DNA of 64,000 nucleotides from Oscillospiraceae bacterium (GTDB lineage Bacteria; Bacillota; Clostridia; Oscillospirales; Butyricicoccaceae): positions 464 to 64,463 of the forward strand of contig JAZOWC010000068.1 of NCBI GenBank assembly GCA_045658985.1, read 5' to 3'. Numbering within the stretch: position 1 is the stretch's first letter; each line of letters opens with the position of its first letter. Of this stretch, positions 40,280 to 57,918 are shown piece after piece. Both the position numbers and the translations under genes were made by a program. Under the pieces are notes generated by a model that made no database searches, was not told the DNA's origin, and saw only the letters and a list, made by a program, of their open reading frames with translations.

Positions 40280-41473
40280 TTATGCTTCTACGCCTTTTTC
40301 GCGCAGGCGGAACTTGAACTCATCCTTGACAGCCTGACGGAAGTCTGCATCGGTGACAAAATCATAGGTCACGCCTGCCATAATGGCGGCGCACTCTCTG
40401 ATAAAGTCGGTGGCCTTCTGAGTCTTGCCCAGCGCAACGTGCTCGGGAGAATGGCCTGCAACGCCTTTGTTGTACTCGGCGCGGACAAGGATACCGGGGC
40501 ACACATAGGACACGTTGCCGAAATCGGTAGCACCGCCGCCGCAGACCTGCAGGGCTGCTTCGTCCAGATGCTGAACGTCGTCAAAACCGAACAGTCTGGC
40601 ATTGTTCTCCGATGCGTCGCACAGAGGCTTGTTGACCACGGTATCGTAGAACACGGGGTTGCGGGTGACTTTGACCTGAGTCTCGGTCATCATTGCGCTG
40701 CCCTCCATGACCTTGAGCATACGGCGCACCATATCCTCCAGATAGGTTTTGTCGGAGGCACGCATGGTTACCCATGCCTTGGCTTTGGGGTGAACGATGT
40801 TGGCGGCACCTGTACCCTCCATAACGGTATAGTGGATACGCGAGCCGGTCCTGACGTGCTCACGCATACACTCAAGGCCGTGGAATGCCAGCATCATAGC
40901 GTCCAGAGCGCTGCGGCCTTTTTCGGGTGAGCCGCCTGCGTGGGCATTGATGCCTGTCCACTCAACGATAGATGATGCCAGCGCCACGTTGGTGCCGCTG
41001 CCGCCTGTGTGAGTGCCGGTATGGTTGGAGAATACCATGTCCAGCTCCTTAAAGCAGCCTGCCTCAACCATATTGATCTTGCCGCCCTTGTTTTCTTCGG
41101 CGGGAGTGCCGTAGATAACCAGCTTGTAGGGGACGTCCTTGAGATTGTCACGAATGGCGAGGGCTGCACCGATGGCGGCAGGGGTCTGCAGATGATGTCC
41201 GCATCCGTGGCCCAGATTGGCCAGTGCATCATACTCGCCGAGGAATCCAACGACGGGGCCGCCCGTTCCCTGCTCGTACTCAGCGCGGAATGCGGTAGGC
41301 AGTGTGCCTGTTCCGATCTCAACCTTGAAGCCCTTGTCCTTGAGGTAATCGGTGAGGACCTTGCAGGCGTATTCCTCCTCAAAGCCTATTTCGGGATGGT
41401 CAAATATATCATCGCTGAGTGCTCTCAGCTCGGTCATATAACCGTCGATGGACTGCAAAAACTTCTGTTTCAT
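40280..41473 (-). CDS. M20-family amidohydrolase, AbgB-like, paralog 2
   Basis: DDIFDHPEIGFEE, GEYDALANLGHGCGHHLQ, GTPAEE. 397 aa. Confidence 0.8.
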   Translation of the reverse strand: MKQKFLQSIDGYMTELRALSDDIFDHPEIGFEEEYACKVLTDYLKDKGFKVEIGTGTLPTAFRAEYEQGTGGPVVGFLGEYDALANLGHGCGHHLQTPAAIGAALAIRDNLKDVPYKLVIYGTPAEENKGGKINMVEAGCFKELDMVFSNHTGTHTGGSGTNVALASSIVEWTGINAHAGGSPEKGRSALDAMMLAFHGLECMREHVRTGSRIHYTVMEGTGAANIVHPKAKAWVTMRASDKTYLEDMVRRMLKVMEGSAMMTETQVKVTRNPVFYDTVVNKPLCDASENNARLFGFDDVQHLDEAALQVCGGGATDFGNVSYVCPGILVRAEYNKGVAGHSPEHVALGKTQKATDFIRECAAIMAGVTYDFVTDADFRQAVKDEFKFRLREKGVEA

Positions 41474-41490
41474 AGCCGTTGCTCCTCCTC

Positions 41491-42684
41491 TTATGCTTCT
41501 ATGCCCTTTTCGTGCAGGCGGCGAAGGTATTCGTCCTTGACATTCTTGGCAAACTCCTCGTCATTGATGAAATCATAGCTGACGCCCGCCATGATCTTGG
41601 CGCAGTTTTTGAGGTAATTGGATGCTTCCTCGGTCTTGCCAAGAGCCACGTATTCGGGGGTGTGGGCCACTACGTTATCGCCGTACTCCACGTAGAACAT
41701 AACGCCGGGGCAAACGTAGGATACGTTGCCGTAGTCGGTAGCGCCGCCGCCTGTGACGTTGATCTGAGCTTCGGTCTTGTGAACCAGCTTTTTGACGTCC
41801 AGCAGTGCTGCATTCTCCTCAACGGCGTTGTGCAGAGCCATATTGATGATAGTGTCGTAGAACATGGGATCGTGGGTGACCTTGACCTGTGTCTCGGTCA
41901 TCATTGCGCTGCCCTCAACCACCAGGCGCATACGTCTCAGCATATCCTCAAGATAGGTTTTGTCGGCGCTGCGGCAGGTGATTCGTGCGCGGGCTTTGGG
42001 GTGGACGATGTTGGCGGCGCCTGTTCCCTCGAGAATGGTGTAGTGGATCCTCGAGCCGGTCTTTACGTGCTCGCGCAGGCACTCAAGGCCGTGAAAAGCC
42101 AGCACCATAGCGTCCAGAGCGCTTCTGCCCTTCTCGGGAGAGCCGCCTGCGTGGGCATTGATGCCTGTCCACTCCACCACAGAGGATGCCAGCGCAACGT
42201 GGTTGTTGCTGCCTGCGGTGGTGTTGGCGGTATGGTTGGAAAACACCATATCAAGCTCTTTAAAACAGCCTGCGTTGGCCATATTGATCTTGCCGCCGCG
42301 GGTCTCCTCTGCGGGTGTGCCGTAGATGACCAGCTTGTAGGGGCGGTCTTTGACACAGTCACGGATGGCCAGAGCCGCACCGATGGCGGCGGGAGTCTGC
42401 AGATGATGTCCGCAGCCGTGGCCCAGATCGGCCAGCGCGTCATACTCGCCGAGGAAGCCGATGACGGGGCCGCCCGTTCCCTGCTCGTACTCGGCGCGGA
42501 ATGCGGTAGGCAAGCCGCCTGTGCCTATCTCTACCTTGAAGCCCTCTTTTTTGAGGTAATCTGTGAGGGTTTTGCAGGCATACTCCTCCTCAAAGCCGAT
42601 TTCGGGATGATCGAATATATCATCGCTGAGGGCTTTGAGCTGAGGCAGGTATGTGTCAACTGCGGCGAAAATTTTATTCTTCAT
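41491..42684 (-). CDS. M20-family amidohydrolase, AbgB-like, paralog 1
   Basis: Same motifs as paralog 2 (GEYDALADLGHGCGHHLQ). Long identical stretches when aligned by eye. Start taken at the ATG at 42684 (MKNKIF...), 2 nt after the upstream stop. Confidence 0.8.
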   Translation of the reverse strand: MKNKIFAAVDTYLPQLKALSDDIFDHPEIGFEEEYACKTLTDYLKKEGFKVEIGTGGLPTAFRAEYEQGTGGPVIGFLGEYDALADLGHGCGHHLQTPAAIGAALAIRDCVKDRPYKLVIYGTPAEETRGGKINMANAGCFKELDMVFSNHTANTTAGSNNHVALASSVVEWTGINAHAGGSPEKGRSALDAMVLAFHGLECLREHVKTGSRIHYTILEGTGAANIVHPKARARITCRSADKTYLEDMLRRMRLVVEGSAMMTETQVKVTHDPMFYDTIINMALHNAVEENAALLDVKKLVHKTEAQINVTGGGATDYGNVSYVCPGVMFYVEYGDNVVAHTPEYVALGKTEEASNYLKNCAKIMAGVSYDFINDEEFAKNVKDEYLRRLHEKGIEA

Positions 42685-42686
42685 AA

Positions 42687-44093
42687 TTACCACTCCATCT
42701 CGTTCAATCTAAGCAGCGCACGGGCATAAATACGCATACCCCGCTGCAGTCTGTCAAGTGATACACTCTCGTCCTTGCCGTGAGCGCTGCCAAAGCCGGG
42801 TGCAAAATCCTCGGGAGGCAGACAGCCGCTCATACCGTAGACCAGAGCGTTGGGCAGCACATGGGCATAGGTGCCGCCGCCTACGGTGTAGGGCTTGCTG
42901 TCGGAGCCACACTGCTCGTTGGCGATCTTTGTCAGCTCCCTGATAACGTCCCAGTCTCTGTCCAGCAGATAGGGGTCCGTTCCCCGCTGAATACCCGCTA
43001 TCTCAAAGCCGTTGGCCTCGGCAAGGGTTCTGAGTCCCTCGGCGATACGCTCATAGGTGATCTCCATGGGATAACGGATATTGATGCCCATCTCGGGTCT
43101 GCCGTTTTTGTGCCGCACATCCACCATGGCAAGAGTCAGGTTGCCCATGATCCCATTTTGGCAGGCGATGCCGAACATCTCGCCCGCCACGTCGGTAGAG
43201 ACTGCTTTGAGGAAGGCGGCTTTTTTTGCATCATTTTCGCTGAGCAGTCCGCTTTTGAGCATAGCGTCGGTGATGACGGTGATCATATTGCCCTCACGCT
43301 GGGGATGGGCGCAATGGACGGGGGCGGTGTTGGCGGTAAGCTTGATGCCACCATTATATTTTTCGGTATCACAGCCCTGTGCCTCTATATATGAGTCGGT
43401 GCTTATCCACGCCTCGGCCTTGCCGGGTGAATCGTCCCTGCCCGCCTCAAGTCTGACCGCATCCCAGGGGGTTTTGGCTATAATGCGTGCGCGGACGCAG
43501 CCTTTGCCGCCGTAGCCCACGGGAAAACCGCTGTCGGGCACAAGGGACAGTCTGGGTGCGGGATAGCGGCGGAGGAACTCTTTGACATCGGCCTTTTCGG
43601 GGGTGTTTTCCACCTCGGCCATTGCAGTTTCTTCGTTGCTGCCCACAAACAGGGCGGGATTGTATCTGAGCGAGATGCCCAGTTTTTTGAATATCTCAAG
43701 CAGGCGCAGGATGGCTACCAGCTGACCTTTGTTGTCGGTGACGCCGCGGCCGATGATGCAGCCTTTTTACTCAACGGCGTTGTAGGGGTCATAGTTCCAG
43801 CCGATGCCCTCATGCACAACGTCGCCGTGTGCCCAGATACCGAGGTCGATCTCACCCTCATCAGGCGAAAGGCTGACCACGCCCGTGCCGTAATCACGGG
43901 TGACAAATCCGCGGTCTGCGCCCAGCGCCATAACCTCTTCCAGCAGGCGCTGAGGGCCCTCGCCGAAGGGTGCGCCCGGCAGGGGTGCTTCCCTCACCGA
44001 GCGGATGTTGACGAGGCGGATGACGTCAGCTGCAATATTGGCACGATCGGCATCTATCAGTTCGTCGATCTGCCTGATCAGTTGCTCGTCCAT
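42687..44093 (-). pseudogene. PepV/Sapep-like M20 dipeptidase interrupted by one in-frame TAA (codon at 43767-43769)
   Basis: Track ORFs 43767..44105 and 42687..43646 are in the same frame. Reading through gives ...YNAVE*KGCIIGRGVTDNKGQLV..., where both intact paralogs have AVEYKGC (TAC). A single TAC to TAA change. Confidence 0.75.
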
Positions 44094-44098
44094 AATTT

Positions 44099-45526
44099 TT
44101 ACCATTCCATATCGTTGAGAGCCAGCATGGAACGTGCGTAGATACGCATACCTCTCTGCAGGCGGTCAAGCGACACGCTCTCGTCCTTGCCGTGAGCACC
44201 GCCGTGGCCTTTGGGGAAATCTTCGGGGGTCTTGTTGCCGCTGAAGCCAAAGGCGAGGCCGTTGGGCAGGCAGTGTGCATAGGTGCCGCCGCTGAGGGTG
44301 TAGGGAGCTTTGTCGTCGCCTGTGATCTCGTTGGAGATCTTGTTGAGCTCTGTGATGATCTCCCAGTCCTTGTCCAGCAGGTAGGGACGCACGCCGCAAT
44401 AGGTGTCAACCACCTCAAAGCCGTTGGCGGCTGCGGTGGCGGTAACCTTGGCAAGTACCTCCTCATAGGTGGTACCCATAGGATAGCGCATATTGATGCC
44501 GAACTCGATCTTGCCGTCAACCTCGATGATATCCAGCAGAGCAAGGGTAAGGTCGCCCATACCCACGCCCACGGTCTTGACGCCGAACATCGCACCGTCA
44601 ACGTCCAGAGAAACGGCTTTGAGGAAGGCGGCTTTTTTGGCATCCGCCTCGGTCAGCAGATTATTGTCCAGCAGAGCACCGGTCACGATGGTGACCATAT
44701 TTCCGCCGGGCTTGGGGTGTGCGGAGTGGATGGGAGGGGTCTCGGCGGTGACTTTGACGCCGTCTGCGCATTTTTCGGTGGTGCAGTTTTCAAACTCGGC
44801 ATACTGTGCGCCGGGGAGGATAGCTACTGCCCTGCCGGGAGCGTCGGGTGTGCCTGCGGTGAAAGCAAGCTTCTCCCAGCCGTCAAAGCTCCGAAAACGC
44901 ACGCGCATAGAGCCTTTGCCGCCGTAGCCTACGGGGAAGCTGCTGTCGGGAACCAGCGACAGACGGGGTGCTTTGAACTTGTTGATAAAGCCCACAGCCT
45001 CATCATTGCCGGGCAGACCCATCATGTCGGCCATACCGGCTTCTTCGTCGCTGCCCACGAACAGAGCGGGGTTGTATTTGAGGGGTGTGCCGAGCTTTTT
45101 GAACATGGTGAGCAGGTGCAGTGCCGATACCAGCTGGCCTTTGTTGTCGGTGGAGCCGCGGCCGACGATGCAGCCTTTGTACTCCACTGCGTTGTAGGGC
45201 TCAAAGTTCCAGCCCGAGCCCTCGTGGACAACGTCGCCGTGTGCCCAGATGCCCATATCTATCTCACCCTCGCGGAGGGCAAGGCTGATAACACCGGTGT
45301 TCTCGTACTCACGGACTACAAAGCCCAGCTCTCTGCCCATTTCCATAACCGTATCGAGCACCTTGCGGGGGCCTGCGCCGAAAGGCGCACCGGGCAGAGG
45401 ATTTTCACGAACAGAGCGGATATTGACAAGCTTGATAACGTCGGCGGCGATATTGGCACGGTCTGCATCAATAAGCTCGTCGATCTGTTTGATAATATCG
45501 TTATTCATATCGGTATGTTTCTCCAA
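44099..45526 (-). CDS. PepV/Sapep-like M20 dipeptidase, paralog 2
   Basis: WAHGDVVHEG, GRGSTDNKGQ, GSDEE, HGKDE. 475 aa from a TTG. Alternative ATG start at 45508. Confidence 0.8.
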   Translation of the reverse strand: MEKHTDMNNDIIKQIDELIDADRANIAADVIKLVNIRSVRENPLPGAPFGAGPRKVLDTVMEMGRELGFVVREYENTGVISLALREGEIDMGIWAHGDVVHEGSGWNFEPYNAVEYKGCIVGRGSTDNKGQLVSALHLLTMFKKLGTPLKYNPALFVGSDEEAGMADMMGLPGNDEAVGFINKFKAPRLSLVPDSSFPVGYGGKGSMRVRFRSFDGWEKLAFTAGTPDAPGRAVAILPGAQYAEFENCTTEKCADGVKVTAETPPIHSAHPKPGGNMVTIVTGALLDNNLLTEADAKKAAFLKAVSLDVDGAMFGVKTVGVGMGDLTLALLDIIEVDGKIEFGINMRYPMGTTYEEVLAKVTATAAANGFEVVDTYCGVRPYLLDKDWEIITELNKISNEITGDDKAPYTLSGGTYAHCLPNGLAFGFSGNKTPEDFPKGHGGAHGKDESVSLDRLQRGMRIYARSMLALNDMEW

Positions 45527-45529
45527 AGT

Positions 45530-46939
45530 TTACCACTCCATCTCGTTGAGAGCGAGGAATGCACGTGCATAGATGCGCATAGCTCTCTGCAGACGGTCGA
45601 GGGATACACATTCGTCCTTGCCGTGTGCGCCGCCGTGGCCTACGGGGAAATCTTCGGGCTTCTTGTTGCCGTTCATACCGTAGACCAGAGCGTTGGGCAG
45701 ACGGTGTGCATAGGTGCCGCCGCCGAGGGTGTAGGGAGCCTTGTCCTCACCTGTCACGTCGTTGGATACCTGATTGAGCACCTTGATAACATCCCACTCA
45801 CTGTCCAGCAGGTAGGGGTTGGTGCCGCGGGTTGCGGCAGTGAGCTCAAAGCCGTTCTCCTCTGCGAAAGCGGCAAGCTGCTCGGTGATCTTCTCGTATG
45901 TAGTCTCGATGGGGTAACGGATGTTGACAGCAAACTCGGGCTTGCCGTCCACGTCGGTGACAGATACCAGAGCAAAGGTCAGGTTCTTGGTAGCGCCGCC
46001 GCCTGCTGCGACACCGAACTTCTCGCCTGCGATGTCCAGAGATGCCATGTTGAGGAATGCGGCCTTCTTGGCGTCCTCCTCGCTGAGCAGATTGTTCTGG
46101 AGCAGGGCTCTGGTGATAAAGGTGACCATATTGCCCTCTGCCTTGGGGCTGGAGGTGTGGATGGGAGCGCTCTCTGCGGTGACCTTGAGGACTTCGCCGC
46201 GCTCGACTGTGCAGCCTTCCATATCGGGGCAGTCTTTGAGGGTCTTGAACCATACTTCTGCCAGACCGGGAGCACCCGTCTGACCTGCGATCATCTTGAT
46301 GCCCTCCCAGGGGGTCTTGGCTCTGAATCTTGCGCCTACGGAGCCCTTGCCGCCGTAGCCTACGGGGAAGCCGCCGTCGGGAACCAGAGACAGCTTGGGG
46401 CACTTGTATACGTTGATAAAGCCCTGAGCATCCTCATTGCCGGGAACGCCGATCATATCGCCCATACCGGTCTCCTCGTTGCTGCCGATGTACAGAGCGG
46501 GGTTGTACTTGAGCTCAACACCCAGCTTCTTGAAGATCTCCAGCAGGCGCAGGATGGCTACCAGCTGACCCTTGTTGTCGGTGGAGCCGCGGCCGATGAT
46601 ACAGCCCTTGTACTCGATGGCGTTGTAGGGCTCGTAGATCCAGCCGATACCCTCGTGAACAACGTCGCCGTGTGCCCATACGCCCAGATCGATCTCACCG
46701 GGCTTGAGTGCTACGCTGGCAACGGCTGCCTTATCGTAGAAGAAGGTCTCCAGACCGCGATCTGCGCCCATCTCGAGCACGGTGTCAAGCACCTTGCGGG
46801 GGCCTGCGCCGAAGGGTGCGCCGGGCAGGGGTTCTTCTCTGACCGAACGGATATTGACCAGCTTTATAACGTCGGCTGCAATATTGGCACGGTCGGCATC
46901 TATAAGTTCGTCGATTTTTTTGATAAGCTCCTGATTCAT
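45530..46939 (-). CDS. PepV/Sapep-like M20 dipeptidase, paralog 1
   Basis: Same motif set. 469 aa. Confidence 0.85.
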   Translation of the reverse strand: MNQELIKKIDELIDADRANIAADVIKLVNIRSVREEPLPGAPFGAGPRKVLDTVLEMGADRGLETFFYDKAAVASVALKPGEIDLGVWAHGDVVHEGIGWIYEPYNAIEYKGCIIGRGSTDNKGQLVAILRLLEIFKKLGVELKYNPALYIGSNEETGMGDMIGVPGNEDAQGFINVYKCPKLSLVPDGGFPVGYGGKGSVGARFRAKTPWEGIKMIAGQTGAPGLAEVWFKTLKDCPDMEGCTVERGEVLKVTAESAPIHTSSPKAEGNMVTFITRALLQNNLLSEEDAKKAAFLNMASLDIAGEKFGVAAGGGATKNLTFALVSVTDVDGKPEFAVNIRYPIETTYEKITEQLAAFAEENGFELTAATRGTNPYLLDSEWDVIKVLNQVSNDVTGEDKAPYTLGGGTYAHRLPNALVYGMNGNKKPEDFPVGHGGAHGKDECVSLDRLQRAMRIYARAFLALNEMEW

Positions 46940-46979: not shown

Positions 46980-48548
46980 TCAAAGCTCGCGGGTGATGAC
47001 TCTGCCGCCCTTTTCGCCGGTAGCTTCGCCGTCTACAGCGGCTATTTTACCGCCGACGATGACGTAATTGAGGCCCTCGTTCTTCAGGGTGCAGTCAACG
47101 AATGTAGCGCCGTCGATGATCTTGTTTTCGTCAAAGATGCAGATGTCGGCATCCATACCGGCACGGATGAGACCCTTGGTGTCCAGGCCGTAGACGGCGG
47201 CGGGCATGCTGGTCATCTTGCGGATCATCTCGGGCAGTGTGCAGGCGCCCTTTTCGCGGACGTATCTGCCCAGCACTCTGGGGAAGGAGCCGCGCAGGCG
47301 GGGATGGTATTTGCGCAGGGTGGGTCTGCCCACACCGCTGTCGGTGCCGATCATTGCCCGCTCGTAGCCCATAATGGCGCATACGTCATCATCGGAGATA
47401 CCGAAGTAGCAGGCCATACCCTTGAGGTCGTTGAGAATAAGCAGGTCAAAGAGTGCCTCGTAGTGATCCTCTTTGCCCATCATAGCGGCGACCTCACTCA
47501 TACGCTTGCCCTCGTACTGAGGAGCGTTGGCGATGGTGTTGAGCTGTACCCAGTCCAGATCCTCTCTGCCGTAGCGCTCTACGTTGCGACGGCGGAGTGC
47601 GGCGCGGACTTCGGGCTTTTTGAGTTCCTCCAGCATTACATCGTGGGAGTTGGCTCTGAACTCGATAGTGCCGAAAATAGGCAGCAGGGAGGTATTGTAG
47701 GCGTTATAGGGATAAACGTCGGCATAGACGTCCAGTCCCTCGGCGTTGGCCTCGTCAATGAGTCGCATCAGGTTGTACACCTTGCCCCAGTTTTCTTCTC
47801 TGTCGCTGGACTTGAGGTGGGAGACGACGCCTCTGGCGCCGCTCTCGCGCAGTACCTGCAAAAACTCCTTGACGGCGGCGGCAACGTTGTCACCCTCGTT
47901 GCGGATATGTGCGGTAACCACGCCGCCGTACTCGGCGGCCACCTTGGCAAGCGCCGACATCTCGGGCACTTCGCTGTAGCAGCCGGGGTTGTAGCCCAGA
48001 CCGAAGGACAGACCCAGCGCACCCGCCTCCATGGCGTCGCGGACATAGTCTTTCATTTTTTCCAGTTCTTCCTCGGTGGGGGTGCGGAAGGCATTGCCCA
48101 TTACTGCGTCGCGGATGGAGTTGTGGCCTACAAGCACCATACTGTTGGCGCCCTGAGGCACGGTCCTGGCAATGCTCAAAAATGTGCTCATATCCTTGTA
48201 GACATCGCACTCGAGACCGAACTCACCGATCTGCTCGGCTTTCTCACGGCTGCCGCTGTAGGGAGCGGGAGAGCCGCCGCACTGACCGCCGATGGAGGTG
48301 GTGATGCCCTGCTCGATCTTCTCTTTCTGCAGAGGCTGCAAAAGTACCCAGCCGTCATTGTGGGAGTGAGAGTCGATAAAGCCGGGGGTGACGGTGAGGC
48401 CGCGGGCGTCTATCTCCCGCTGGGCAGATTCACGGATGATTTTGGAGACCTTGGCTATTTTGCCGTCTTTGACAGCGATATCGGCATAAAAAGAAGGGCC
48501 GCCGGTACCGTCAAGGATCTTGCCGTTTCTGATAATAATATCGTACAT
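46980..48548 (-). CDS. N-acyl-D-amino-acid deacylase (D-aminoacylase) family amidohydrolase, paralog 6
   Basis: MYDIIIRNGKILDGTG, GFIDSHSHND, GGQCGGS, AHIRNEGD, VSHLK, GTDSG. 522 aa. Confidence 0.8.
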   Translation of the reverse strand: MYDIIIRNGKILDGTGGPSFYADIAVKDGKIAKVSKIIRESAQREIDARGLTVTPGFIDSHSHNDGWVLLQPLQKEKIEQGITTSIGGQCGGSPAPYSGSREKAEQIGEFGLECDVYKDMSTFLSIARTVPQGANSMVLVGHNSIRDAVMGNAFRTPTEEELEKMKDYVRDAMEAGALGLSFGLGYNPGCYSEVPEMSALAKVAAEYGGVVTAHIRNEGDNVAAAVKEFLQVLRESGARGVVSHLKSSDREENWGKVYNLMRLIDEANAEGLDVYADVYPYNAYNTSLLPIFGTIEFRANSHDVMLEELKKPEVRAALRRRNVERYGREDLDWVQLNTIANAPQYEGKRMSEVAAMMGKEDHYEALFDLLILNDLKGMACYFGISDDDVCAIMGYERAMIGTDSGVGRPTLRKYHPRLRGSFPRVLGRYVREKGACTLPEMIRKMTSMPAAVYGLDTKGLIRAGMDADICIFDENKIIDGATFVDCTLKNEGLNYVIVGGKIAAVDGEATGEKGGRVITREL

Positions 48549-50132: not shown

Positions 50133-51695
50133 TCAGTCCTCTCTCAAAAGCACCTTTCCGCAGCATTTGCCATTGAATACGGCGTTCTCTGCAACTACCT
50201 CACCGCCGATGATGACGTAATTCAGACCCTCGGCACGTGCTTTGCAGTCGGTGAAGGATGCTTTGTCCACGATCTTGTCGGCATCAAAGATGCAGATGTC
50301 AGCGTCAAAGCCGTCCCAGATGATGCCCTTGGATTTGAGGCCGTAGACGGCGGCGGGCATTGCGGTCATCTTGCGGATCATCTCGGGCAGAGTGGTGACT
50401 CCCCTCTCGCGGACGTACTCACCCAGTGTTCTGGTGAAGGATGCGGTCAGTCTGGGATGGAAGAACACCTTGCCTGCGGTGATGCCGCTGTCGGTGCAGA
50501 TCATTGCACGGGGATGTGCCATGATGGTCTCCACGTCTTCTTCGCACATTGTGAAATAGCAGGCCGAGCAGGCGACTTTGCTGTCGTGCATAATGTCAAA
50601 CAGCATCTCATAGGGCTCCTTGCCCTTTTCGCGGGCGATGTCTCCAACTACCCTGCCCGAATACTCGGGGTTGCCGGGGCAGATGGTGACCTGAACCCAG
50701 TCAAGATCTTCTTTGCCGTAGTAGCTGACGTTGATGTTGCGTACTCTCTCGCGGTACTGAGGATCTTCCAGCATCTTGGTCAGACCGTCAAGACCTGCCG
50801 CTCTGTCCTCGCGGGGGATGAACATACTCTGCATATTGGTATGGGATGCGATGTAGGGGTATACGTCGCAGTAGAGGTCGTAGCCCTCGGCGTTGGTCTC
50901 GTCGATCATACGCAGGGTGTGGCTGACCTTGCCCCAGTTTTCTTCTTTCTCATAGCATTTGTGGTGGGAGATAACGCCGCGGCAGCCCGAGTCTTTGACG
51001 ATGGCGATAAACTCCTTGGTAGAGCGGATGAGATAGTCTGCCTCGTCACGGATGTGGGAGGTAATAACGCCCTCGTACTCCTTGACGATTTTGGCAAGCT
51101 CGATGCACTCATTGACCTCGGCATAGCAGCCGGGAGCATAAAACAGACCAAAGGACACGCCCATTGCGCCGTGCTCCATACCCTCGCGTACCAGAGCTTT
51201 CATCTGATCCATTTCGCTCTCGGTGGGTGCGCGGTTTTCAAGACCCATAACGGCACGTCTCAGCTGGCTGTGACCCATCAGGATGCCCGTGTTGCTGCCC
51301 TGAGGCACGTCTTTGGCTATATCAAGCAGGGTGCCCATGGTCTTGTACAGATCAAGCTGGATGCCGAAGTTGCCCACCTGCTTGGGGGTGGTTGCGTACT
51401 TCGAAATAGGTGCGATACTGTCGCCGCACTGGCCTGCAATGGTGGTGGTGATGCCCTGCTCGACCTTTTCGGTCTGATCGGGGTGGGACAGCACAAAGCT
51501 GTCGTTGTGACCGTGAGAATCGATAAAGCCGGGGGAAACGATCAGGCCGGTGGCGTCAATGATCTGCTTGGCATCGCCGCAGATGCCCTTTTTGACCTTG
51601 ACGATCTTGCCATCCTTGACGGCTACGTCGGCCTGATAAGAAGGCGAGCCTGTGCCGTCGATAACTTTGCCGTTTTTGATAAGTATGTCAAACAT
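50133..51695 (-). CDS. D-aminoacylase family amidohydrolase, paralog 4
   Basis: GFIDSHGHND, AGQCGDS, SHIRDEAD, ISHHK, CTDSG. 520 aa. Confidence 0.8.
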   Translation of the reverse strand: MFDILIKNGKVIDGTGSPSYQADVAVKDGKIVKVKKGICGDAKQIIDATGLIVSPGFIDSHGHNDSFVLSHPDQTEKVEQGITTTIAGQCGDSIAPISKYATTPKQVGNFGIQLDLYKTMGTLLDIAKDVPQGSNTGILMGHSQLRRAVMGLENRAPTESEMDQMKALVREGMEHGAMGVSFGLFYAPGCYAEVNECIELAKIVKEYEGVITSHIRDEADYLIRSTKEFIAIVKDSGCRGVISHHKCYEKEENWGKVSHTLRMIDETNAEGYDLYCDVYPYIASHTNMQSMFIPREDRAAGLDGLTKMLEDPQYRERVRNINVSYYGKEDLDWVQVTICPGNPEYSGRVVGDIAREKGKEPYEMLFDIMHDSKVACSACYFTMCEEDVETIMAHPRAMICTDSGITAGKVFFHPRLTASFTRTLGEYVRERGVTTLPEMIRKMTAMPAAVYGLKSKGIIWDGFDADICIFDADKIVDKASFTDCKARAEGLNYVIIGGEVVAENAVFNGKCCGKVLLRED

Positions 51696-51700: not shown

Positions 51701-53269
51701 TTATTCCTCTCTAAGTATAATTTTTCCGTTGCGTTTGCCGTTGTGTACGGCGTTCTCTACTACTACCTCACCTGCCACAAGGACATAATTGAGTCCCTCG
51801 GCACGTTTCTGACAATCGGTAAACTCGGAGCGGTCGATAAGCTTGTCGGGATCAAAGATGCACAGATCGGCATCGAATCCGTCCCAAACGAGACCCTTGG
51901 AGCGCAGATCGTATACTGCGGCGGGCATGGCGGTCATCTTGCGGATCATCTCGGGCAGCGAGACCACGCCCTTTTCGCGGACGTATCTGCCGATGGCACG
52001 GGGGAAGGATGCTTTGAGTCTGGGGTGGTAGACAGAAGCTTTGCCTGCCACACCGCCGTCGGTGCAGATCATTGCCCTCTCGTATGCAAGAACGGTCTCA
52101 ACGTCCTCCTCGGCTATGGAGAAGTAGACGCCCGTAACCGCAAGCTCGCTGGCTATGAGGATGTCATAGACCATATCGTAGGGGTCTTTGCCCTCCATGC
52201 GGGCGATATCGTCCATACGCATACCCAGATACTGGGGATAGGCACTGCTCTTGACGAGCTGAACCCAATGGAGGTCGTTCTGCCACTTCTGACGTGCCCA
52301 CTCGGTGATCTCGGCGCGCTTTTGGGGGTCTCTCAGCTGCTCAAGCTGGGCAGCCGTGCTCTGCGCGCGGAATGCCTGAGGCAAGAAGGAGGTGTTGATG
52401 CCCGTGCTTGCTGCGTGATAGGGGTACACGTCGCAGTATATCTCCACGCCCTGCTCGTTGGCCTCCCTGAGCATACGGATGGTGTGGGTGACTTTGCCCC
52501 AGCTCTCCTCGAGGCCTGCGGCTTTGTGGTGGGACAGAACGCCGCGGGCGCCGCCTGATGCGCGGATGATGGTGATAAACTCCTTGACGGCGCGCACCAG
52601 AGTCACGCCCTCACTGCGGATATGGGCGGCGACAACCGCGTTGTACTCGCCTGCCACCTTGGCAAGCTCGATACACTCATCTGTATCGGCATAGCAGCCG
52701 GGGGTATAGATGAGTCCCAGCGACAGACCAAGCGCACCCGCCTCGATACCCTCACGCAGGAGAGCTTTCATTCTTTCAAGCTCCTCCAAAGTAGGCTTGC
52801 GGTTTTCTACGCCCATAACGGCGCGGCGGAGAGAACACTGACCCACGAGCATTGCGATATTGCTGCCCTGAGGCTTGTCTTTGGCGCAGGAGAGGAAGGT
52901 GCCCATAGTCCGGTACACCTCGTCCTCTCTGCCCACGCCGTCTATCATCTTGATCTTGCTCTCGGGAATATCGCAGCCGAAGGGTGCCTGAGATGTGCCG
53001 CACTGGCCTGCGATGGAGGTGGTTATACCCTGCTCGATCTTCTCCCGCTGATCGGGAAAGGTGAATATTGCCGAGTCATTGTGGGCGTGGGAATCTATAA
53101 AACCCGGGGTAACCACAAGTCCCTGAACGTCGATGGTTTCTTTGGCCTCGCCGCGGATGCCCTTTTTGACCTTGACGATCTTGCCGTCGCGGATGGCAAC
53201 GTCGGCAAAATATGAGGGAGAGCCGGTACCGTCGATTATTCGTCCGTTTTTGATGAGCAGGTCAAACAT
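51701..53269 (-). CDS. D-aminoacylase family amidohydrolase, paralog 3
   Basis: GFIDSHAHND, AGQCGTS, AHIRSEG, LSHHK, CTDGG. 522 aa. Confidence 0.8.
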   Translation of the reverse strand: MFDLLIKNGRIIDGTGSPSYFADVAIRDGKIVKVKKGIRGEAKETIDVQGLVVTPGFIDSHAHNDSAIFTFPDQREKIEQGITTSIAGQCGTSQAPFGCDIPESKIKMIDGVGREDEVYRTMGTFLSCAKDKPQGSNIAMLVGQCSLRRAVMGVENRKPTLEELERMKALLREGIEAGALGLSLGLIYTPGCYADTDECIELAKVAGEYNAVVAAHIRSEGVTLVRAVKEFITIIRASGGARGVLSHHKAAGLEESWGKVTHTIRMLREANEQGVEIYCDVYPYHAASTGINTSFLPQAFRAQSTAAQLEQLRDPQKRAEITEWARQKWQNDLHWVQLVKSSAYPQYLGMRMDDIARMEGKDPYDMVYDILIASELAVTGVYFSIAEEDVETVLAYERAMICTDGGVAGKASVYHPRLKASFPRAIGRYVREKGVVSLPEMIRKMTAMPAAVYDLRSKGLVWDGFDADLCIFDPDKLIDRSEFTDCQKRAEGLNYVLVAGEVVVENAVHNGKRNGKIILREE

Positions 53270-53274
53270 AATGA

Positions 53275-54840
53275 TTATTCCTCTCTAAGGATGATTTTGC
53301 CCAGACGCTTGCCGTTGTGAACAGCGTTCTCAACAACGACCTCGCCTGCCATCAGGACATAGTTGAGTCCCTCGGCACGCTTCTGGCAATCGGTAAACTC
53401 GCTGCGGTCGATGATCTTGTCGGGATCGAAGATGCACAGGTCGGCATCAAAGCCTTCCCACACCAGACCCTTGGAGCGCAGGTTGTAGACTGCGGCGGGC
53501 ATTGCGGTCATCTTGCGGATCATCTCGGGCATGGAAACCACACCCTTTTCGCGGCAGAATCTGCCCAGTGCGCGGGGGAAGGAGCCCTTGTTGCGGGGGT
53601 GGAAGACGGTTGCATTGCCTGCAACGCCGCCGTCGGTGCAGATCATTGCGCGGTCATATGCCATGACGGTGGCGATGTCTTCTTCGCAGATGGTGAAGTA
53701 GCAGGCTGTGCCGCCCATATTGTCGCTGGTGAGGATCTCAAAGACCATATCGTACTCATCTCTGCCCTCTTTTTCTGCGATCTTGTCCATACGCATACCC
53801 AGATACTGGGGATAGGAGCCGCTGCGGGCAAGCTGTACCCAGCTGAGGTCTCTGCCCCATTTTTTGAGGTTCCACTGGAGGATCTCCTCGCGCTTCTGAG
53901 GATCATTGAGCTGCTCGATCTGTGCAGCGGCGCTCTGTGCGCGGAAGGGGCCGGGCAGGAAGGTAGATGCCAGACCCGTGTGGGATGCGTGGTAGGGGTA
54001 TACGTCGCAGTAGATCTCCACGCCCTGCTCGTTGGCTTCCTTGAGCATACGGATGGTGTGGCTGACCTTGCCCCATGTCTCGTCACGGGTTGCGGCCTTG
54101 TGGTGAGACAGCACGCCTCTGGCGCCCGACTCACGGATGATGGTGATAAACTCCTTGACAGCCTTGATGAGGTAGTCGCCCTCGTCACGGATGTGTGCGG
54201 CAACAACTGCGTTGTACTCGCCTGCTACCTTGGCGATCTCGATGAGCTCGTCGGTCTCGGCATAGCAGCCGGGGGTGTAAATGAGGCCCAGCGACAGACC
54301 CAGTGCGCCTGCTTCGATGCCCTCGCGCAGGAGGGATTTCATTTTCTCAAGCTCCTCGGCGGTAGGCTTGCGGTCTGCAACGCCCATAACGGCACGGCGG
54401 AGAGAGCCGTGACCTACCAGCATGCAGACGTTGCTGCCCTGGGGGACCTTCTGTGCATTCTCGAGGAAGGAGCCCATGGTCTTGTATACGTCGCACTCGG
54501 GGCCGAAGCCCTCGATATTCTTGATCTTCTCGGCGGGAACGTCCTTGCCGTAGGGTGCCTGAGAGCCGCCGCACTGACCTGCGATGGTGGTGGTGATGCC
54601 CTGCTCGATCTTCTCGCGCTGATCGGGGAAAGAGAATATGGCAGAGTCATTGTGTCCGTGAGAATCTATAAAGCCGGGGGTTACTACCAGACCCTGTGCG
54701 TCCAGGATGTCTTTTGTGTCGCCGCGGATGCCTTTTTTGACCTTGACGATCTTTCCATCCTTGATGGCAACGTCGGCAAAATAGGAGGGAGAACCGGTAC
54801 CGTCGATAATTCTTCCGTTTTTGATAATAAGATCGTACAT
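53275..54840 (-). CDS. D-aminoacylase family amidohydrolase, paralog 2
   Basis: GFIDSHGHND, AGQCGGS, AHIRDEGD, LSHHK, CTDGG. 521 aa. Confidence 0.8.
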   Translation of the reverse strand: MYDLIIKNGRIIDGTGSPSYFADVAIKDGKIVKVKKGIRGDTKDILDAQGLVVTPGFIDSHGHNDSAIFSFPDQREKIEQGITTTIAGQCGGSQAPYGKDVPAEKIKNIEGFGPECDVYKTMGSFLENAQKVPQGSNVCMLVGHGSLRRAVMGVADRKPTAEELEKMKSLLREGIEAGALGLSLGLIYTPGCYAETDELIEIAKVAGEYNAVVAAHIRDEGDYLIKAVKEFITIIRESGARGVLSHHKAATRDETWGKVSHTIRMLKEANEQGVEIYCDVYPYHASHTGLASTFLPGPFRAQSAAAQIEQLNDPQKREEILQWNLKKWGRDLSWVQLARSGSYPQYLGMRMDKIAEKEGRDEYDMVFEILTSDNMGGTACYFTICEEDIATVMAYDRAMICTDGGVAGNATVFHPRNKGSFPRALGRFCREKGVVSMPEMIRKMTAMPAAVYNLRSKGLVWEGFDADLCIFDPDKIIDRSEFTDCQKRAEGLNYVLMAGEVVVENAVHNGKRLGKIILREE

Positions 54841-54849
54841 ATTTTCACC

Positions 54850-56391
54850 TTATGCCTTTCTGATAGGTTTGCCTGCCAGAGCGCCGTTGTACTTGTCGTG
54901 CTCGACGGTGATAACGCCGTTGACCAGCACGTATTCAACACCCACGTTGGGCTTGCCGGGTTCAACAAAAGTGGAGAGGGGGCCGTACTTGTCAGCATCG
55001 ATGATGCAGATGTCTGCGTCTCTGCCCACCTCAAGCAGACCCTTGGTGTTGAGGTCATAGACCTCGGCTGCCAGAGAGGTCATCTTGCGGATCATCTCCT
55101 CAAACTCAACAGCCTTGAGCTCTCTGACAAAACGGGATACGGCGCGGGGGAATGTGCCGTAGTTGCGGGGATGAGCGGGAGCGCGGGAAACGCTGCCGTC
55201 CGAGCCGATCATTGCATAGGGCTTGGAGATAACGTTCCGGACGTCCTCTTCGTTCATGGTGAACAGAACGCCGCGGCCGACGCACTCGTTGGCTGCCAGC
55301 ACGTCGAACAGAGTCTCAAACTCGTCCTTGCCGTACTTCTCTGCGGCTTCGTTGATGCGCAGACCGTTGAGCTCGCTCAGCTCGGTAAGGCCGCACATAA
55401 GGCACCAGGACAGGCCCTTTTCGTGCCAGGAATGATTGATAAATGTCTCCTCGATCCACTCGCGTGCTTCCTTGCGGTATTCGGGAGTCTTGAGCATTTC
55501 GGCGATCTTCTTCTTGCCCAGAGCCTGACGCTCGGGGGAGATAAAGGTTGCCCACAGGCTGGTGGAGCAAGCCTCATAGGGGTATACGTCGCACCAGATG
55601 GGTACACCCTGCTCGCGTGCTTCTTCGATCAGCTTGGTGGTGATCTTGGTGCGTCCCCAGTAGTTGGGGCCGCCTGCTGCTTTGTGGTGGGAGACAACGG
55701 TCTTGGCGCCGGTGCGGCGGGCGATCTCGATCATCTCCTCCACAGACTCGACCAGTCTGACACTCTCAGAACGGATGTGGCTGGAGATAACGCCGCCTCT
55801 TTCGCCAACGACCTTGCCGATCTCAACGATCTCGTCGGTGGTTGCGTATGCGCCGGGGGTGTAGTAGATGCCCAGGTTCATGCCCTTGGCGCCCTCGTCC
55901 ATGCACTTGGCCATGAGAGCCTTCATCTGCTCCATCTCCTCAGCGGTGGGGGCGCGGTTTGCCAGATCGCCCATAACCATATCGCGGATGGTGCTGTGGC
56001 CTGCCAGCAGAACTACGTTGCTGCCCAGACCGCTCTCCTCCAGAGCATCAAACCAATCCTTGACGGTCTTGCGCTTTTCGTAATTCTTGGCATCACACTT
56101 GCCGCAGGGAGCGTCGGAGCCGCCGCACTGGCCGCCGATGATGGTGGTAACGCCCTGAAGCACGATGTTGTCCATATCGGGCATCTCAAGCACACTGCCG
56201 TCGCCGTGGCTGTGAGAATCGATAAAACCGGGTGTTGCGGTCAGGCCGGTGGCGTCGATGATCTGCTTTGCCTCGCCCTCTACTTTGCCCATTGCGGCGA
56301 TCTTGCCGTCCTTGACAGCGATGTCGCCCTGATAGCCTTTTTTGCCGCTGCCGTCTACGATATTGGCGTTCTTAATGATAATATCAAACAT
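54850..56391 (-). CDS. D-aminoacylase family amidohydrolase, paralog 1 (most divergent)
   Basis: Start taken at the ATG at 56391 (MFDIIIKNANIVDG) with an AAAGAGG RBS. GFIDSHSHGD, GGQCGGS, SHIRSES, VSHHK, GSDGS. Confidence 0.8.
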   Translation of the reverse strand: MFDIIIKNANIVDGSGKKGYQGDIAVKDGKIAAMGKVEGEAKQIIDATGLTATPGFIDSHSHGDGSVLEMPDMDNIVLQGVTTIIGGQCGGSDAPCGKCDAKNYEKRKTVKDWFDALEESGLGSNVVLLAGHSTIRDMVMGDLANRAPTAEEMEQMKALMAKCMDEGAKGMNLGIYYTPGAYATTDEIVEIGKVVGERGGVISSHIRSESVRLVESVEEMIEIARRTGAKTVVSHHKAAGGPNYWGRTKITTKLIEEAREQGVPIWCDVYPYEACSTSLWATFISPERQALGKKKIAEMLKTPEYRKEAREWIEETFINHSWHEKGLSWCLMCGLTELSELNGLRINEAAEKYGKDEFETLFDVLAANECVGRGVLFTMNEEDVRNVISKPYAMIGSDGSVSRAPAHPRNYGTFPRAVSRFVRELKAVEFEEMIRKMTSLAAEVYDLNTKGLLEVGRDADICIIDADKYGPLSTFVEPGKPNVGVEYVLVNGVITVEHDKYNGALAGKPIRKA

Positions 56392-56437
56392 AATTTTTAC
56401 CTCTTTCAGTGATTTTTCTGTGTTTTCGGTGATTTTG

Positions 56438-56487
56438 AAAAAAGAGGACCCAAACAAACGCATTTTCCCGTTTGCCTGAATCCTCTT
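56438..56487 (-). terminator. Imperfect hairpin plus T-run between the PrpD-like gene and the first D-aminoacylase (possible attenuator)
   Basis: Minus strand reads AAGAGGA-ttcagg-CAAACG-ggaaaatg-CGTTTG-tttggg-TCCTCTTTTTTC, within the only long (104-nt) gap of the operon. Confidence 0.4.
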
Positions 56488-56495
56488 GTTTTTGT

Positions 56496-57839
56496 TTATC
56501 GGTCGGTCCAGTTTTCCTTGCGGTTTACGAGAGCAACGATGTCACGGACCTTGACGTTGAGGTCGCCCTTGAGCACTTCCATAATGTCCTTGAGAGCCTT
56601 CTCGGTCATAACAGCCTTGCTCATACGCATAAACTTCTCCTCGATCCACTCAAAGCCGAAGCCCTCGTGTGCCTCGCCTCTGGGCTCGCACAGGCCGCCT
56701 TCCAGCACGGTGCCGTCCTTGAGGGTGATGACAGCCTTGCAGCAGCGGTGCTCGGGGAACATTGCGTCGATCTCGTCGTCCTTTTCAAAGCTCAGGCGGC
56801 TCATCATCTCGATGACTCTGGGATCGCCCAGGTTCTCGTCTCTGGCCTGCTCAAAGCCGAAGTCGCCCCATACGATACCGCAGGCGGTGGGATATGCGAT
56901 GTTGTACTGGGATTCGTCGGTGGTCTTGGGAACGATCTTGGACAGACGGGTTGCCTGATAGAAGGTCTTGATGACGACTTTTTCGATATCCTGCCACTTG
57001 ATGCCGTGGTCTCTCATCAGGAATACGACGGCGTCGATTGCGGGGTGACCCCAGCGGCAGCCTGCGTAGGGTTTGAAGTACAGATCCAAGATCTCGTACT
57101 TTTTGCCCAGATCGTCGGCGTACTTCTTGTACTCCTCGCCGTCCATCAGGTGGCAGTTGGAAACGAAGCCGCACTTCTCGGAGGCCATTGCCATAGCACC
57201 GACCATAGCGCCGTAAGGAACACCGTCCTTGTTCATGGAGGGGTACTCAACACTTCTGCCGCCGGGAGCGAAGGGGCTGTTGAACTCGGCGATTGCCAGA
57301 GCGTTGTTCAGTCTCTCTCTGTCCCAGCCCTTGAGCTTGCCTGCGCCTGCTACGATACCCCAGGGTCCGAAGGAGCCGCTGGAATGGTAGTAGTTGTTGT
57401 AGTGCTCGATCATGGCGGCGCCCGAACGGATGGTGGTCTCGTAGGCGGCTACCAGAGCCTCAAGCAGCTCTTTGTATGTGCTGTCCTCTTCCCAAGCGGC
57501 GGCAAGAATACCGCTGATGAATGCTGTACCGGGATGAGCACGGATGATCTTGTGTCCGTCGTCAAGGTCGTAGGCGTTGGAGGAGTGACCCATGGCGGTG
57601 GTTGCACCGTAGTAGTTGAAGGTCTCCTGAATGCCGATTACGGGGATATCGCCCTTGCCGAACATTTCTTTTGCAGTCTTGACGCCTGCATCGAACTGTG
57701 CGCTGTGGCTGCCCAGGATCAGAGCATTCAGCAGGTCGGCAAAGCACATCTTTGCTCTCTCCTGAACCTTCTCGGGCAGGTTCTCCCATTTGAGGTTGAT
57801 GATAAAGTCCTCAAACTTGTAGTCTCTCGAATAAATCAT
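56496..57839 (-). CDS. MmgE/PrpD-family protein (2-methylcitrate dehydratase superfamily, function not assignable)
   Basis: 447 aa. The N-terminal pattern ...LPEKVQERAKMCFADLLNALILGS... and HSSNAYDLDDGH... are typical of MmgE/PrpD. GGAGAG RBS. Confidence 0.75.
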   Translation of the reverse strand: MIYSRDYKFEDFIINLKWENLPEKVQERAKMCFADLLNALILGSHSAQFDAGVKTAKEMFGKGDIPVIGIQETFNYYGATTAMGHSSNAYDLDDGHKIIRAHPGTAFISGILAAAWEEDSTYKELLEALVAAYETTIRSGAAMIEHYNNYYHSSGSFGPWGIVAGAGKLKGWDRERLNNALAIAEFNSPFAPGGRSVEYPSMNKDGVPYGAMVGAMAMASEKCGFVSNCHLMDGEEYKKYADDLGKKYEILDLYFKPYAGCRWGHPAIDAVVFLMRDHGIKWQDIEKVVIKTFYQATRLSKIVPKTTDESQYNIAYPTACGIVWGDFGFEQARDENLGDPRVIEMMSRLSFEKDDEIDAMFPEHRCCKAVITLKDGTVLEGGLCEPRGEAHEGFGFEWIEEKFMRMSKAVMTEKALKDIMEVLKGDLNVKVRDIVALVNRKENWTDR

Positions 57840-57888
57840 TATGTTTCTCTCCTCACATAATAATAGTTTTTATTTACATCTGCCATTG

Positions 57889-57918
57889 ATTTTACCATAA
57901 TACCGCCTTCAATTGCAA
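57889..57918 (-). promoter_or_regulatory. Candidate promoter of the amidohydrolase operon
   Basis: Minus strand reads TTGCAA, 18 nt, TGgTAAAAT (extended -10), about 50 nt upstream of the PrpD-like ATG. Confidence 0.5.

Follow-up and report, generated by a model that had tools for sequence, protein, structure and literature searches.

Why should an uncultured gut bacterium keep six diverged D-aminoacylase genes, three dipeptidase genes and two M20D amidohydrolase genes in one row behind a gene of the MmgE/PrpD family? The question is raised by contig JAZOWC010000068.1 of an Oscillospiraceae bacterium (Butyricicoccaceae; assembly GCA_045658985.1), of which a stretch of 64,000 nucleotides (forward-strand positions 464 to 64,463, hereafter the window) was analysed. 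A check of the open reading frames (ORFs) of the window gave twelve co-directional minus-strand ORFs running from 57839 to 40280, at the coordinates of a first-pass annotation made from the letters alone. In order, they are one MmgE/PrpD gene, six D-aminoacylases (DA1-DA6), three PepV/Sapep-like M20 dipeptidases (PV1-PV3) and two M20D amidohydrolases (AH1 and AH2), closed by a strong terminator. The reading towards which the evidence leans, by no means securely, is that the array encodes a cytoplasmic battery that would finish small amide-linked amino-acid compounds (D-terminated or N-acylated, and non-standard dipeptides) in uncultured Clostridia of the ruminant hindgut. All of the components fall in known families, and nothing beyond ordinary catabolism is proposed for them; what stands out is the number of copies, and the array is not a new kind of system. 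No description of the array, or of a PrpD-family gene paired with aminoacylases, was found in the literature.

The six D-aminoacylase-like proteins all match Amidohydro_3 in Pfam, and DA2 matches the Alcaligenes D-aminoacylase 1M7J with an E-value of 5e-78 in a sequence search of the PDB. The AlphaFold model of DA2 (pLDDT 95) superposes on the D-aminoacylase fold of 3GIP, 1M7J and 9G5M, a (beta/alpha)8 barrel with a beta-sandwich and an inserted alpha/beta domain, with TM-scores of 0.83-0.92, against about 0.5-0.6 for allantoinase, hydantoinase and dihydroorotase, identities that are ruled out by both sequence and fold. Structure was modelled for DA2, and the five other copies were judged by their 44-78 % identity to it. 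When the six copies are aligned to the 1M7J sequence (AfDam numbering is used for residues), the metal and catalytic set of a subtype-V metal centre (H67, H69, C96, H220, H250 and D366) is kept in all six. So are Y192, K252, Y283, R377 and T290, residues that bind the acyl oxygen and the alpha-carboxylate in characterised enzymes (PMC12149444, PMC12017989). The motif set first read in the six copies was therefore correct, the metal ligands survive proper alignment, and the family assignments of the first-pass annotation hold in Pfam, TIGRFAM and PDB matches. By alignment and fold, the six genes are confirmed as members of the D-aminoacylase branch with intact active sites.

The common ground with characterised D-aminoacylases thus comprises the fold, the Cys-bridged metal site, the catalytic Asp and the anchoring residues. 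The differences are an identity of 29-32 %, an insertion domain about 35 residues longer than that of AfDam, the pocket positions 191, 254, 346 and 368, and a Phe at the position of AfDam L298 and BbDam R295. The array copies are six tandem paralogs in strictly anaerobic Firmicutes; those characterised so far are known as single genes, from Proteobacteria and Actinobacteria. A metal-dependent bile salt hydrolase identity was also considered and rejected: the PDB matches of DA2 at E <= 1e-5 are D-aminoacylases and then cyclic amidases, without 3ICJ, which represents the branch marked by a sulfonate-binding Ser/Gln/Asn/His set. Preprints from 2026 place the bile salt hydrolases in an NfdA/3ICJ-like branch of Amidohydro_3 and D-aminoacylases in a separate reaction class (PMC13081902, PMC13081988).

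The copies differ where substrate side chains would be accommodated. At F191 of AfDam the array has Tyr in DA1, Ile in DA2 and DA3, Phe in DA4 and DA5 and Gly in DA6; at M254 it has Ala in DA1 to DA3, Tyr in DA4 and DA5 and Ser in DA6; and at M346 it has Thr in DA1, DA2, DA4 and DA5, Ser in DA3 and Gly in DA6. L368 is replaced by Ser in DA1 and by Gly in DA2-DA6, and loop 2 of the insertion domain is variable among the copies. Because the pockets differ in this way, the six enzymes may between them accept a variety of side chains, most of them neutral or hydrophobic. Two known specificities are disfavoured by the same alignment. In BbDam, R295 is the r-site Arg that pairs with the gamma-carboxylate and confers specificity for N-acyl-D-Glu, and in OngB, Ser292 and Gln298 bind sugar hydroxyls (PMC12017989). 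The array has Phe at the AfDam L298/BbDam R295/OngB Q298 position in 6/6 copies, an assignment of moderate certainty as the alignment there crosses a variable loop and the longer insertion domain, and Thr at OngB Ser292, also in 6/6. These residues argue against both an N-acyl-D-Glu-specific type and an OngB-type sugar-acid deacetylase.

PV2 aligns over its full length with PepV (1LFW) and keeps the ligands of both metals (His, Asp, Glu, Asp and His), the catalytic Glu and the lid-domain Arg to which the C-terminal carboxylate binds; H87, D119, E153/E154, D177, R350 and H439 of PepV all have identical counterparts in PV2. The nearest solved relative of PV2 is the S. aureus Mn-dipeptidase Sapep (3KHX), and the Sapep-family model TIGR01887 scores PV2 at 223 and PV1 at 201.8 against a cut-off of 207.95, so that PV1 falls just below it. 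Fold and active-site residues are shared with both known enzymes; identity to them is low, and here there are three tandem paralogs, one of them interrupted. The interrupted gene is PV3, in which a TAA codon stands where PV1, PV2 and the ortholog in L087, a conspecific JGI contig, have TAC (Tyr). The L087 ortholog is intact at 469 amino acids, and L087 is the one other assembly with which the nonsense codon and the downstream end of the array were compared. PV3 is either a recent pseudogene created by this presumed nonsense mutation or the result of a sequence error.

AH1 and AH2 both match Peptidase_M20 and M20_dimer, and score 177.5 and 181.5 bits with TIGR01891 (cut-off 153.75). Their closest solved relatives, by full-length match, are the Xaa-Arg dipeptidase PM20D2 (8XZC, E 6e-54) and S. 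aureus HmrA (3RAM, E 1e-50), both of them dipeptidases or peptidases that act on non-standard substrates. The match to AbgB (3io1) is partial, covering residues 88-270 at E 1e-15, so that the name AbgB-like previously given to these genes is a loose label and gives way to the nearer PM20D2 and HmrA. Neither an AbgA-like second subunit nor an AbgT-type transporter is among the Pfam-scanned ORFs of the window, where no search was aimed at them. An exact-sequence look-up returned no record of AH1 or AH2. AH1 is 84 % identical to a partly covered M20D gene of L087, a strain otherwise 93-99 % identical, and the distal end of the array varies more between strains than the proximal end. Judging by gene spacing in L087, starts at 42684 (not 42693) for AH1 and at 44093 for PV3 are the more likely.

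Intergenic gaps are -7 to 40 nt, with 104 nt between the PrpD-like gene and DA1 given a DA1 start at 56391, which is adopted because a 513-amino-acid product is so called in other assemblies; the row of twelve and its spacing were re-measured and are as first described. Identities are 42-78 % among the D-aminoacylases, 60-64 % among the PepV-like proteins and 73 % between the M20D proteins, and the paralogs are therefore old duplicates with no recent amplification. The ratio of nonsynonymous to synonymous substitution rates (dN/dS), calculated against orthologs in three assemblies (L007, L008 and L087), is 0.03-0.15 for the PrpD-like gene, DA1-DA6, PV1 and PV2, and 0.26 for PV3 against L087. 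These low ratios show that the copies other than PV3 are maintained by purifying selection. The statement that all D-aminoacylase copies look functional is borne out by these ratios and by the intact sites, although it does not extend to the whole array, given the nonsense codon in PV3.

A layout with two EamA genes and, divergent from them, a PrpD-like gene followed by D-aminoacylase, PepV-like and M20D genes is confined to one narrow clade of metagenome-assembled genomes (MAGs) from the ruminant gut. The PrpD-like protein is 93-98 % identical to proteins of Clostridia/Oscillospiraceae MAGs from goat colon and water-buffalo cecum (L007-L010). Copy number differs within the clade: there are six D-aminoacylases in L007, L008 and L087, the last also with three intact PepV-like genes and an M20D gene; four in L090, with one PepV-like gene, no M20D gene, and two solute-binding protein (SBP) genes and a YitT gene upstream; and three in L009 and L010, L009 having four SBP genes upstream. 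L180, whose PrpD-like protein is 69 % identical, has three D-aminoacylases and one PepV-like gene. DA1 defines an ortholog group, type I, with 58-64 % identity to the first D-aminoacylase of L009, L090, L180 and L011. It is only 42-45 % identical to DA2-DA6, and type I shares 38-47 % with all other copies. In a neighbour-joining tree and an identity matrix, the remaining type II copies are 49-60 % identical across genera without clean orthology, except that DA6 groups in the tree with the last copies of L009 and L090.

Outside the clade, D-aminoacylase homologs (55-62 %) are abundant in gut Clostridia and are single genes in every context examined, with an M20 gene, peptide ATP-binding cassette (ABC) transporter genes, a TauE and LysR pair or a GH20 gene as neighbours. 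Among 30 metagenome loci of at least 12 kb with a more distant homolog, 27 were single-copy and three two-copy; within that sample, arrays of three to six copies are therefore rare, and the amplification is unusual, as had been said. In L097 and L098, from another Clostridia lineage, a single homolog (60 %) lies in a row with GNAT acetyltransferase, M20 peptidase, MatE exporter and GH20 hexosaminidase genes, with PGA_cap and Amidohydro_2 genes upstream of the row. This gene context hints at a link between the D-aminoacylase homolog and amino-sugar or cell-wall turnover.

The product of the gene at the head of the array matches MmgE_PrpD_N (E 2.5e-35) and MmgE_PrpD_C (E 6e-31) in Pfam, and 2hp3 (E 7e-19) and 7bra (E 2.5e-15) among PDB sequences. 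The model (pLDDT 91) has TM-scores of 0.77-0.80 to iminodisuccinate (IDS) epimerase 2HP0, cis-aconitate decarboxylase 6R6T and 7BRA, and of 0.63-0.71 to 2-methylcitrate dehydratases. With these lower TM-scores, 27 bits against a cut-off of 950 for the PrpD equivalog NF042438 and no prp genes nearby, PrpD proper was rejected. We take 7BRA to be B. subtilis YxeQ, and YxeP of the same organism to be an M20D enzyme. Identity to 2HP0 and 7BRA is about 19-20 %; fold and equivalents of H99, Y145 and H151 are common to them, and no 2-methylcitrate or itaconate pathway genes lie near the array. The bases proposed for IDS epimerase are H99 and Y145, a pair described as recurring in the B. subtilis protein alone and as missing from the mammalian enzymes (PMC7347537); H102 and Y147 take their place here and do not vary among 46 homologs. 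The B. subtilis gene yxeQ, whose product has no assigned function, shares its operon with genes for the deacetylase YxeP and for an ABC transporter of amino acids (PMC9706529).

The exact PrpD-like sequence is present on ten metagenome contigs, and homologs 52-57 % identical to it are encoded in about 75 further Clostridia MAGs, away from any D-aminoacylase gene. Neighbours were counted in 75 such loci (L012-L086; for example L032 13006-14175, L066 8800-9912 and L021 8405-9931). An AlaDH/PNT-family gene is present in 56, mostly immediately adjacent, followed by Opp-type ABC ATPase genes (20/75), a signal-less NlpC/P60-like gene (17/75), an Orr-like gene of the alanine-racemase fold (14/75), an M20 gene (11/75) and an SBP_bac_5 binding-protein gene (7/75). 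The AlaDH/PNT neighbour scores 260 bits against an alaDH cut-off of 392, and the Orr-like neighbour 356 against 480. One homolog, 62 % identical, has an AlaDH-like gene on one side and on the other a gene of PF00144, a family that includes D-stereospecific peptidases. Such neighbours fit a placing of the PrpD-like family in peptide or D-amino-acid catabolism without revealing its probable reaction. The combination of an Opp-type ABC transporter, an AlaDH/PNT protein and a PrpD-like protein is itself a conserved, apparently uncharacterised module in these roughly 75 MAGs.

The 104-nt gap between the PrpD-like gene and DA1 contains a hairpin with a U-tract, folding at -30.9 kcal/mol (z -4.3; 0/200 shuffles fold equally well). 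A hairpin and U-tract occur at the equivalent place in L001, L002, L007, L008, L087, L009, L010 and L090, and are absent in L011. The stem sequences differ in L009/L010 and in L090, and the hairpin is considered functional because its structure is conserved while its sequence is not. No promoter-like sequence was seen in the approximately 50 nt between hairpin and DA1, and no Rfam element (riboswitch or T-box) was matched in the leader, the operon or its vicinity. The hairpin is most simply read as a terminator, leaky or regulated, that would set the PrpD-like gene apart from the hydrolases. The row is co-directional, as the first-pass annotation had noted in calling it one transcription unit, but the hairpin means that this description needs qualification. 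Of the two outer signals it had proposed, the terminator is strong and the promoter weak (Table 1).

The hairpin also coincides with a sharp break in divergence. The PrpD-like protein is 91-93 % identical to those of L009 and L090, whereas the adjacent D-aminoacylases are 53-60 % identical. Between genera, dN is 0.05-0.07 for the PrpD-like gene, 0.33-0.42 for the hydrolases and 0.18-0.27 for the carriers, with synonymous sites saturated throughout. That the PrpD-like gene was recently transferred horizontally, or underwent gene conversion, was considered as an explanation and rejected, as its dS is also saturated (1.1-1.9); with synonymous sites saturated on both sides, the contrast reflects unequal constraint. 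The break at the hairpin may be due to very unequal constraint alone or to past exchange of the hydrolase cassette.

A further reading starts from these observations, and is a tentative and rather unlikely one: the PrpD-like protein may be an epimerase or isomerase, overlooked so far and independent of cofactors, that serves the catabolism of D-amino acids and peptides in Clostridia. In the ruminant lineage, its module would have captured a fast-evolving cassette of D-aminoacylases and dipeptidases behind the conserved terminator. The protein might act on an amino acid in N-acyl, peptidyl or N-carboxyalkyl form, or on a D-amino acid once released. If this were true, the PrpD-like protein, the AlaDH-like protein and the peptide ABC transporter would form a widespread module in about 75 or more MAG species, and D-aminoacylase copy number (three to six) and pockets would track the local supply of D-peptides and N-acyl-D-amino acids.

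Transport genes adjoin the array on both sides, contrary to the earlier statement that there is no permease. Two divergent EamA carriers lie beside the array in all related loci long enough to include their position, with secA beyond them in the window. They match TIGR00950, a model for carboxylate/amino acid/amine transporters, below its curated cut-off. OppA-type genes lie next to the module in the window (one), in L009 (four) and in L090 (two), and the OppA-type protein is a probable partner in uptake.

Table 1. Coordinates of the array and of adjoining genes and signals, in positions of the 64-kb window (aa, amino acids).
Feature	Coordinates	Strand	Basis
Two divergent EamA (drug/metabolite transporter family) carriers	58025..59925	+	Pfam; TIGR00950 below curated cut-off
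Promoter-like site, TTGCAA, 18 nt, TG-n-TAAAAT, upstream of the PrpD-like gene	57889..57918	-	Weak 9/12 consensus match, extended -10
PrpD-like gene, MmgE/PrpD family, 447 aa, IDS-epimerase / B. subtilis IRG1 (YxeQ-like) subgroup	56496..57839	-	Pfam, PDB matches, model
Hairpin of 19 bp with U-run, internal intrinsic terminator or attenuator	56436..56487	-	Folding energy, recurrence in relatives
DA1, D-aminoacylase type I, 513 aa, first hydrolase gene	54850..56391	-	Amidohydro_3, active-site alignment
DA2, D-aminoacylase type II, 521 aa, 78 % identical to DA3	53275..54840	-	Amidohydro_3, 1M7J match, model
DA3, D-aminoacylase type II, 522 aa	51701..53269	-	Amidohydro_3, active-site alignment
DA4, D-aminoacylase type II, 520 aa, 73 % identical to DA5	50133..51695	-	Amidohydro_3, active-site alignment
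DA5, D-aminoacylase type II, 520 aa	48563..50125	-	Amidohydro_3, active-site alignment
DA6, D-aminoacylase type II, 522 aa, final copy	46980..48548	-	Amidohydro_3, active-site alignment
PV1, PepV/Sapep-like M20 dipeptidase, 469 aa	45530..46939	-	Peptidase_M20, TIGR01887, PepV matches
PV2, PepV/Sapep-like M20 dipeptidase, 475 aa	44099..45526	-	Peptidase_M20, TIGR01887, 1LFW alignment
PV3, PepV/Sapep-like gene with in-frame TAA at 43767-43769	42687..44093	-	Comparison with L087, PV1 and PV2
AH1, M20D amidohydrolase, 397 aa from ATG, PM20D2/HmrA-like	41491..42684	-	TIGR01891, PDB matches
AH2, M20D amidohydrolase, 397 aa, 73 % identical to AH1	40280..41473	-	Peptidase_M20 and M20_dimer, TIGR01891
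Intrinsic terminator closing the array	40233..40262	-	13-bp stem, 8 GC pairs, T-rich tail
OppA-type SBP_bac_5 binding protein, 616 aa, beyond the terminator	38047..39897	-	Matches to 5kzt, PrgZ, OppA

Taken together, the data allow a working model of the array as a catabolic battery. The array would have grown by tandem duplication from a core of the PrpD-like gene, one type I and at least two type II D-aminoacylases and one PepV-like gene. Small peptides or N-acyl amino acids would enter through an Opp-type ABC transporter with the adjacent OppA-like protein or proteins, or through the EamA carriers, which may instead export the released products. Read by eye, the translations begin directly at the catalytic fold and lack a signal peptide, so that a cytoplasmic location is the most reasonable assumption. 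The six D-aminoacylases, with a Cys-bridged Zn site and Asp366 as general base, would cut the amide bond before a C-terminal residue with a free alpha-carboxylate, probably a D or an achiral one. As that carboxylate would be held by Tyr283, Lys252 and Arg377, the substrates should be N-acyl-D-amino acids or Xaa-D-Xaa dipeptides. Remaining dipeptides would be split by the PepV/Sapep-like enzymes, and Xaa-basic dipeptides or N-acyl-L-amino acids by the PM20D2/HmrA-like enzymes. The PrpD-like enzyme would invert or isomerise a carboxylate-bearing substrate or product in an epimerase-type step, and the conserved leaky terminator would set or regulate the ratio of PrpD-like enzyme to hydrolases. 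In other Clostridia, D-aminoacylase homologs also adjoin M20 genes and peptide ABC genes. The finishing battery first suggested for the locus thus survives as the most reasonable reading, as an interpretation and not a result, without the gamma-linked substrates that had been included in it, for which nothing in the analysis speaks.

Several points weigh against this model. The position that decides specificity in AfDam, BbDam and OngB is Phe in all six copies, so that diversification is less clear-cut than six different pockets would imply. D-stereospecificity is assumed from family membership, the substrate as such cannot be read from sequence, and the role given to the PrpD-like enzyme is a guess from two conserved residues and the neighbouring genes. 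The OppA-like gene is tied to the array by proximity only, because it lies beyond the strong terminator. Neither an ABC permease or ATPase nor a racemase or transaminase for released D-amino acids is encoded in the window, and no regulator adjoins the array. Furthermore, the hairpin could end transcription altogether, in which case the hydrolases would have an unrecognised promoter of their own.

The same genes could serve a dedicated pathway for peptidoglycan stem peptides, released either by turnover within the cell or by dead cells around it, in which the PrpD-like enzyme would replace the L-Ala-D/L-Glu epimerase of the E. coli and B. subtilis pathways; this is possible, if rather unlikely. 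Peptides of three to five residues would be imported and trimmed to L-Ala-D-Glu, Xaa-D-Ala and D-Ala-D-Ala, which the D-aminoacylases and M20 enzymes would then split, a version of events that is equally doubtful. The neighbourhoods of PrpD-like homologs elsewhere, with signal-less NlpC/P60-like, Orr-like racemase, AlaDH-like and Opp genes, favour the idea, as do a large NlpC/P60 protein in the window (22118-24508), which directly follows the array region in L090, and the GH20 hexosaminidase beside the D-aminoacylase homolog in L097/L098. These neighbourhoods recall, as we see it, the logic of the murein-recycling operons of B. subtilis (ykfABCD) and E. coli (mpaA-ycjG-mppA), which combine peptide uptake through a binding protein or ABC transporter, cytoplasmic peptidases for D-containing peptides and an epimerase, and which would be alike in logic to the array. 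An enolase-superfamily epimerase and an LD-carboxypeptidase are found there, in contrast to the PrpD-like enzyme and D-aminoacylases here. The stem-peptide pathway is weakened by the Arg of the BbDam type, found in none of the six copies, which have an aligned Phe instead; by the operon itself, which has no NlpC/P60, LD-carboxypeptidase or amidase gene; and by the number of paralogs, since six exceed the need of a few stem-peptide products.

Less probable again is hydrolysis of non-peptide N-acyl amino-acid conjugates of the host or its diet, such as N-acyl-glycines, bile-acid amidates, plant N-malonyl-D-amino acids or hormone conjugates. The gain would then be the amino acid or the acyl moiety, an advantage that seems just as unlikely to explain the array. 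The hosts are herbivores, and the M20D family includes N-acyl-amino-acid and hormone-conjugate hydrolases. L368 of AfDam (L370 of OngB) packs on the acetyl methyl group (PMC12017989), and the Gly or Ser at this position in 6/6 copies suggests room for a larger acyl group. Amidohydro_3 metallo-enzymes do act as bile salt hydrolases in gut bacteria (PMC13081902, PMC13081988), but these are taurine-specific and belong to the NfdA/3ICJ-like branch rather than that of the D-aminoacylases. The PepV/Sapep-like genes and OppA-type proteins point instead to peptides, and no gene for use of an acyl or steroid moiety is nearby.

Two last alternatives are highly improbable. That the six enzymes are OngB-type de-N-acetylases of N-acetylated amino-sugar acids is suggested by the closeness of PpOngB (9KB1) in structure (TM 0.83-0.91) and sequence (E 2.5e-63), by its D-aminoacylase-like fold and anchoring residues and by the small or polar residues that most copies share with it at M254 and M346, yet both sugar-binding signatures are absent in 6/6 (the Thr being as in D-aminoacylases), and the operon has no sugar-acid kinase, dehydratase or aldolase gene. 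A neutral or transient gene-dosage expansion, now decaying and without division of labour, would account for the nonsense codon in one PepV-like copy and for copy numbers that differ between related genomes, but hardly for old copies (42-78 % identity) that retain all catalytic residues and have orthologs in other assemblies under low dN/dS.

The remainder of the window contains a second row of peptidase genes, four tandem Peptidase_M42 genes 29-44 % identical (11923-16013, plus strand), preceded by a Mur-ligase-domain protein (10381-11907) and followed by a Met_gamma_lyase/YnbB-like protein (16017-17243). Rows of peptidase paralogs may be a common feature of this genome. A class A bacterial RNase P RNA (10099-10436, minus strand, 257 bits) extends past 10381, where the Mur-ligase-like ORF was mechanically given its start, and that ORF must therefore start further downstream. 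Two giant predicted surface proteins are encoded on the minus strand between these genes and the array, one of 2405 amino acids with Listeria-Bacteroides repeats, a GDSL lipase domain and DUF4886 (24633-31850), the other of 1908 amino acids with SLH domains (31984-37710), and the minus-strand NlpC/P60 gene (796 amino acids) lies alongside. The giant and SBP genes are extra in the lineage of the window, because L090 has only three small genes between the array and the NlpC/P60 and DUF1846 genes. Positions 1-9000 have a low GC content (0.375-0.45 against about 0.55 elsewhere) and contain a phage integrase (4641-5387, minus strand) and a DUF5655 protein (2072-2968, minus strand); this stretch adjoins two tRNA genes (8757-8966) and a Gut-1 RNA (8492-8568), and is probably an element integrated at a tRNA gene.

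D-aminoacylases are known mainly as industrial enzymes from aerobes. Here, strict gut anaerobes keep three to six diverged copies under purifying selection, linked to dipeptidases, carriers, peptide-binding proteins and a conserved PrpD-family enzyme. This suggests that the herbivore hindgut holds a genuine pool of nutrients in the form of D-terminated or N-acylated amino acids. The enzymes of the array, related but with unlike pockets, are furthermore a naturally occurring set for studies of specificity, and the array offers a lead on the function of the YxeQ/IDS-epimerase-like branch of the MmgE/PrpD family.

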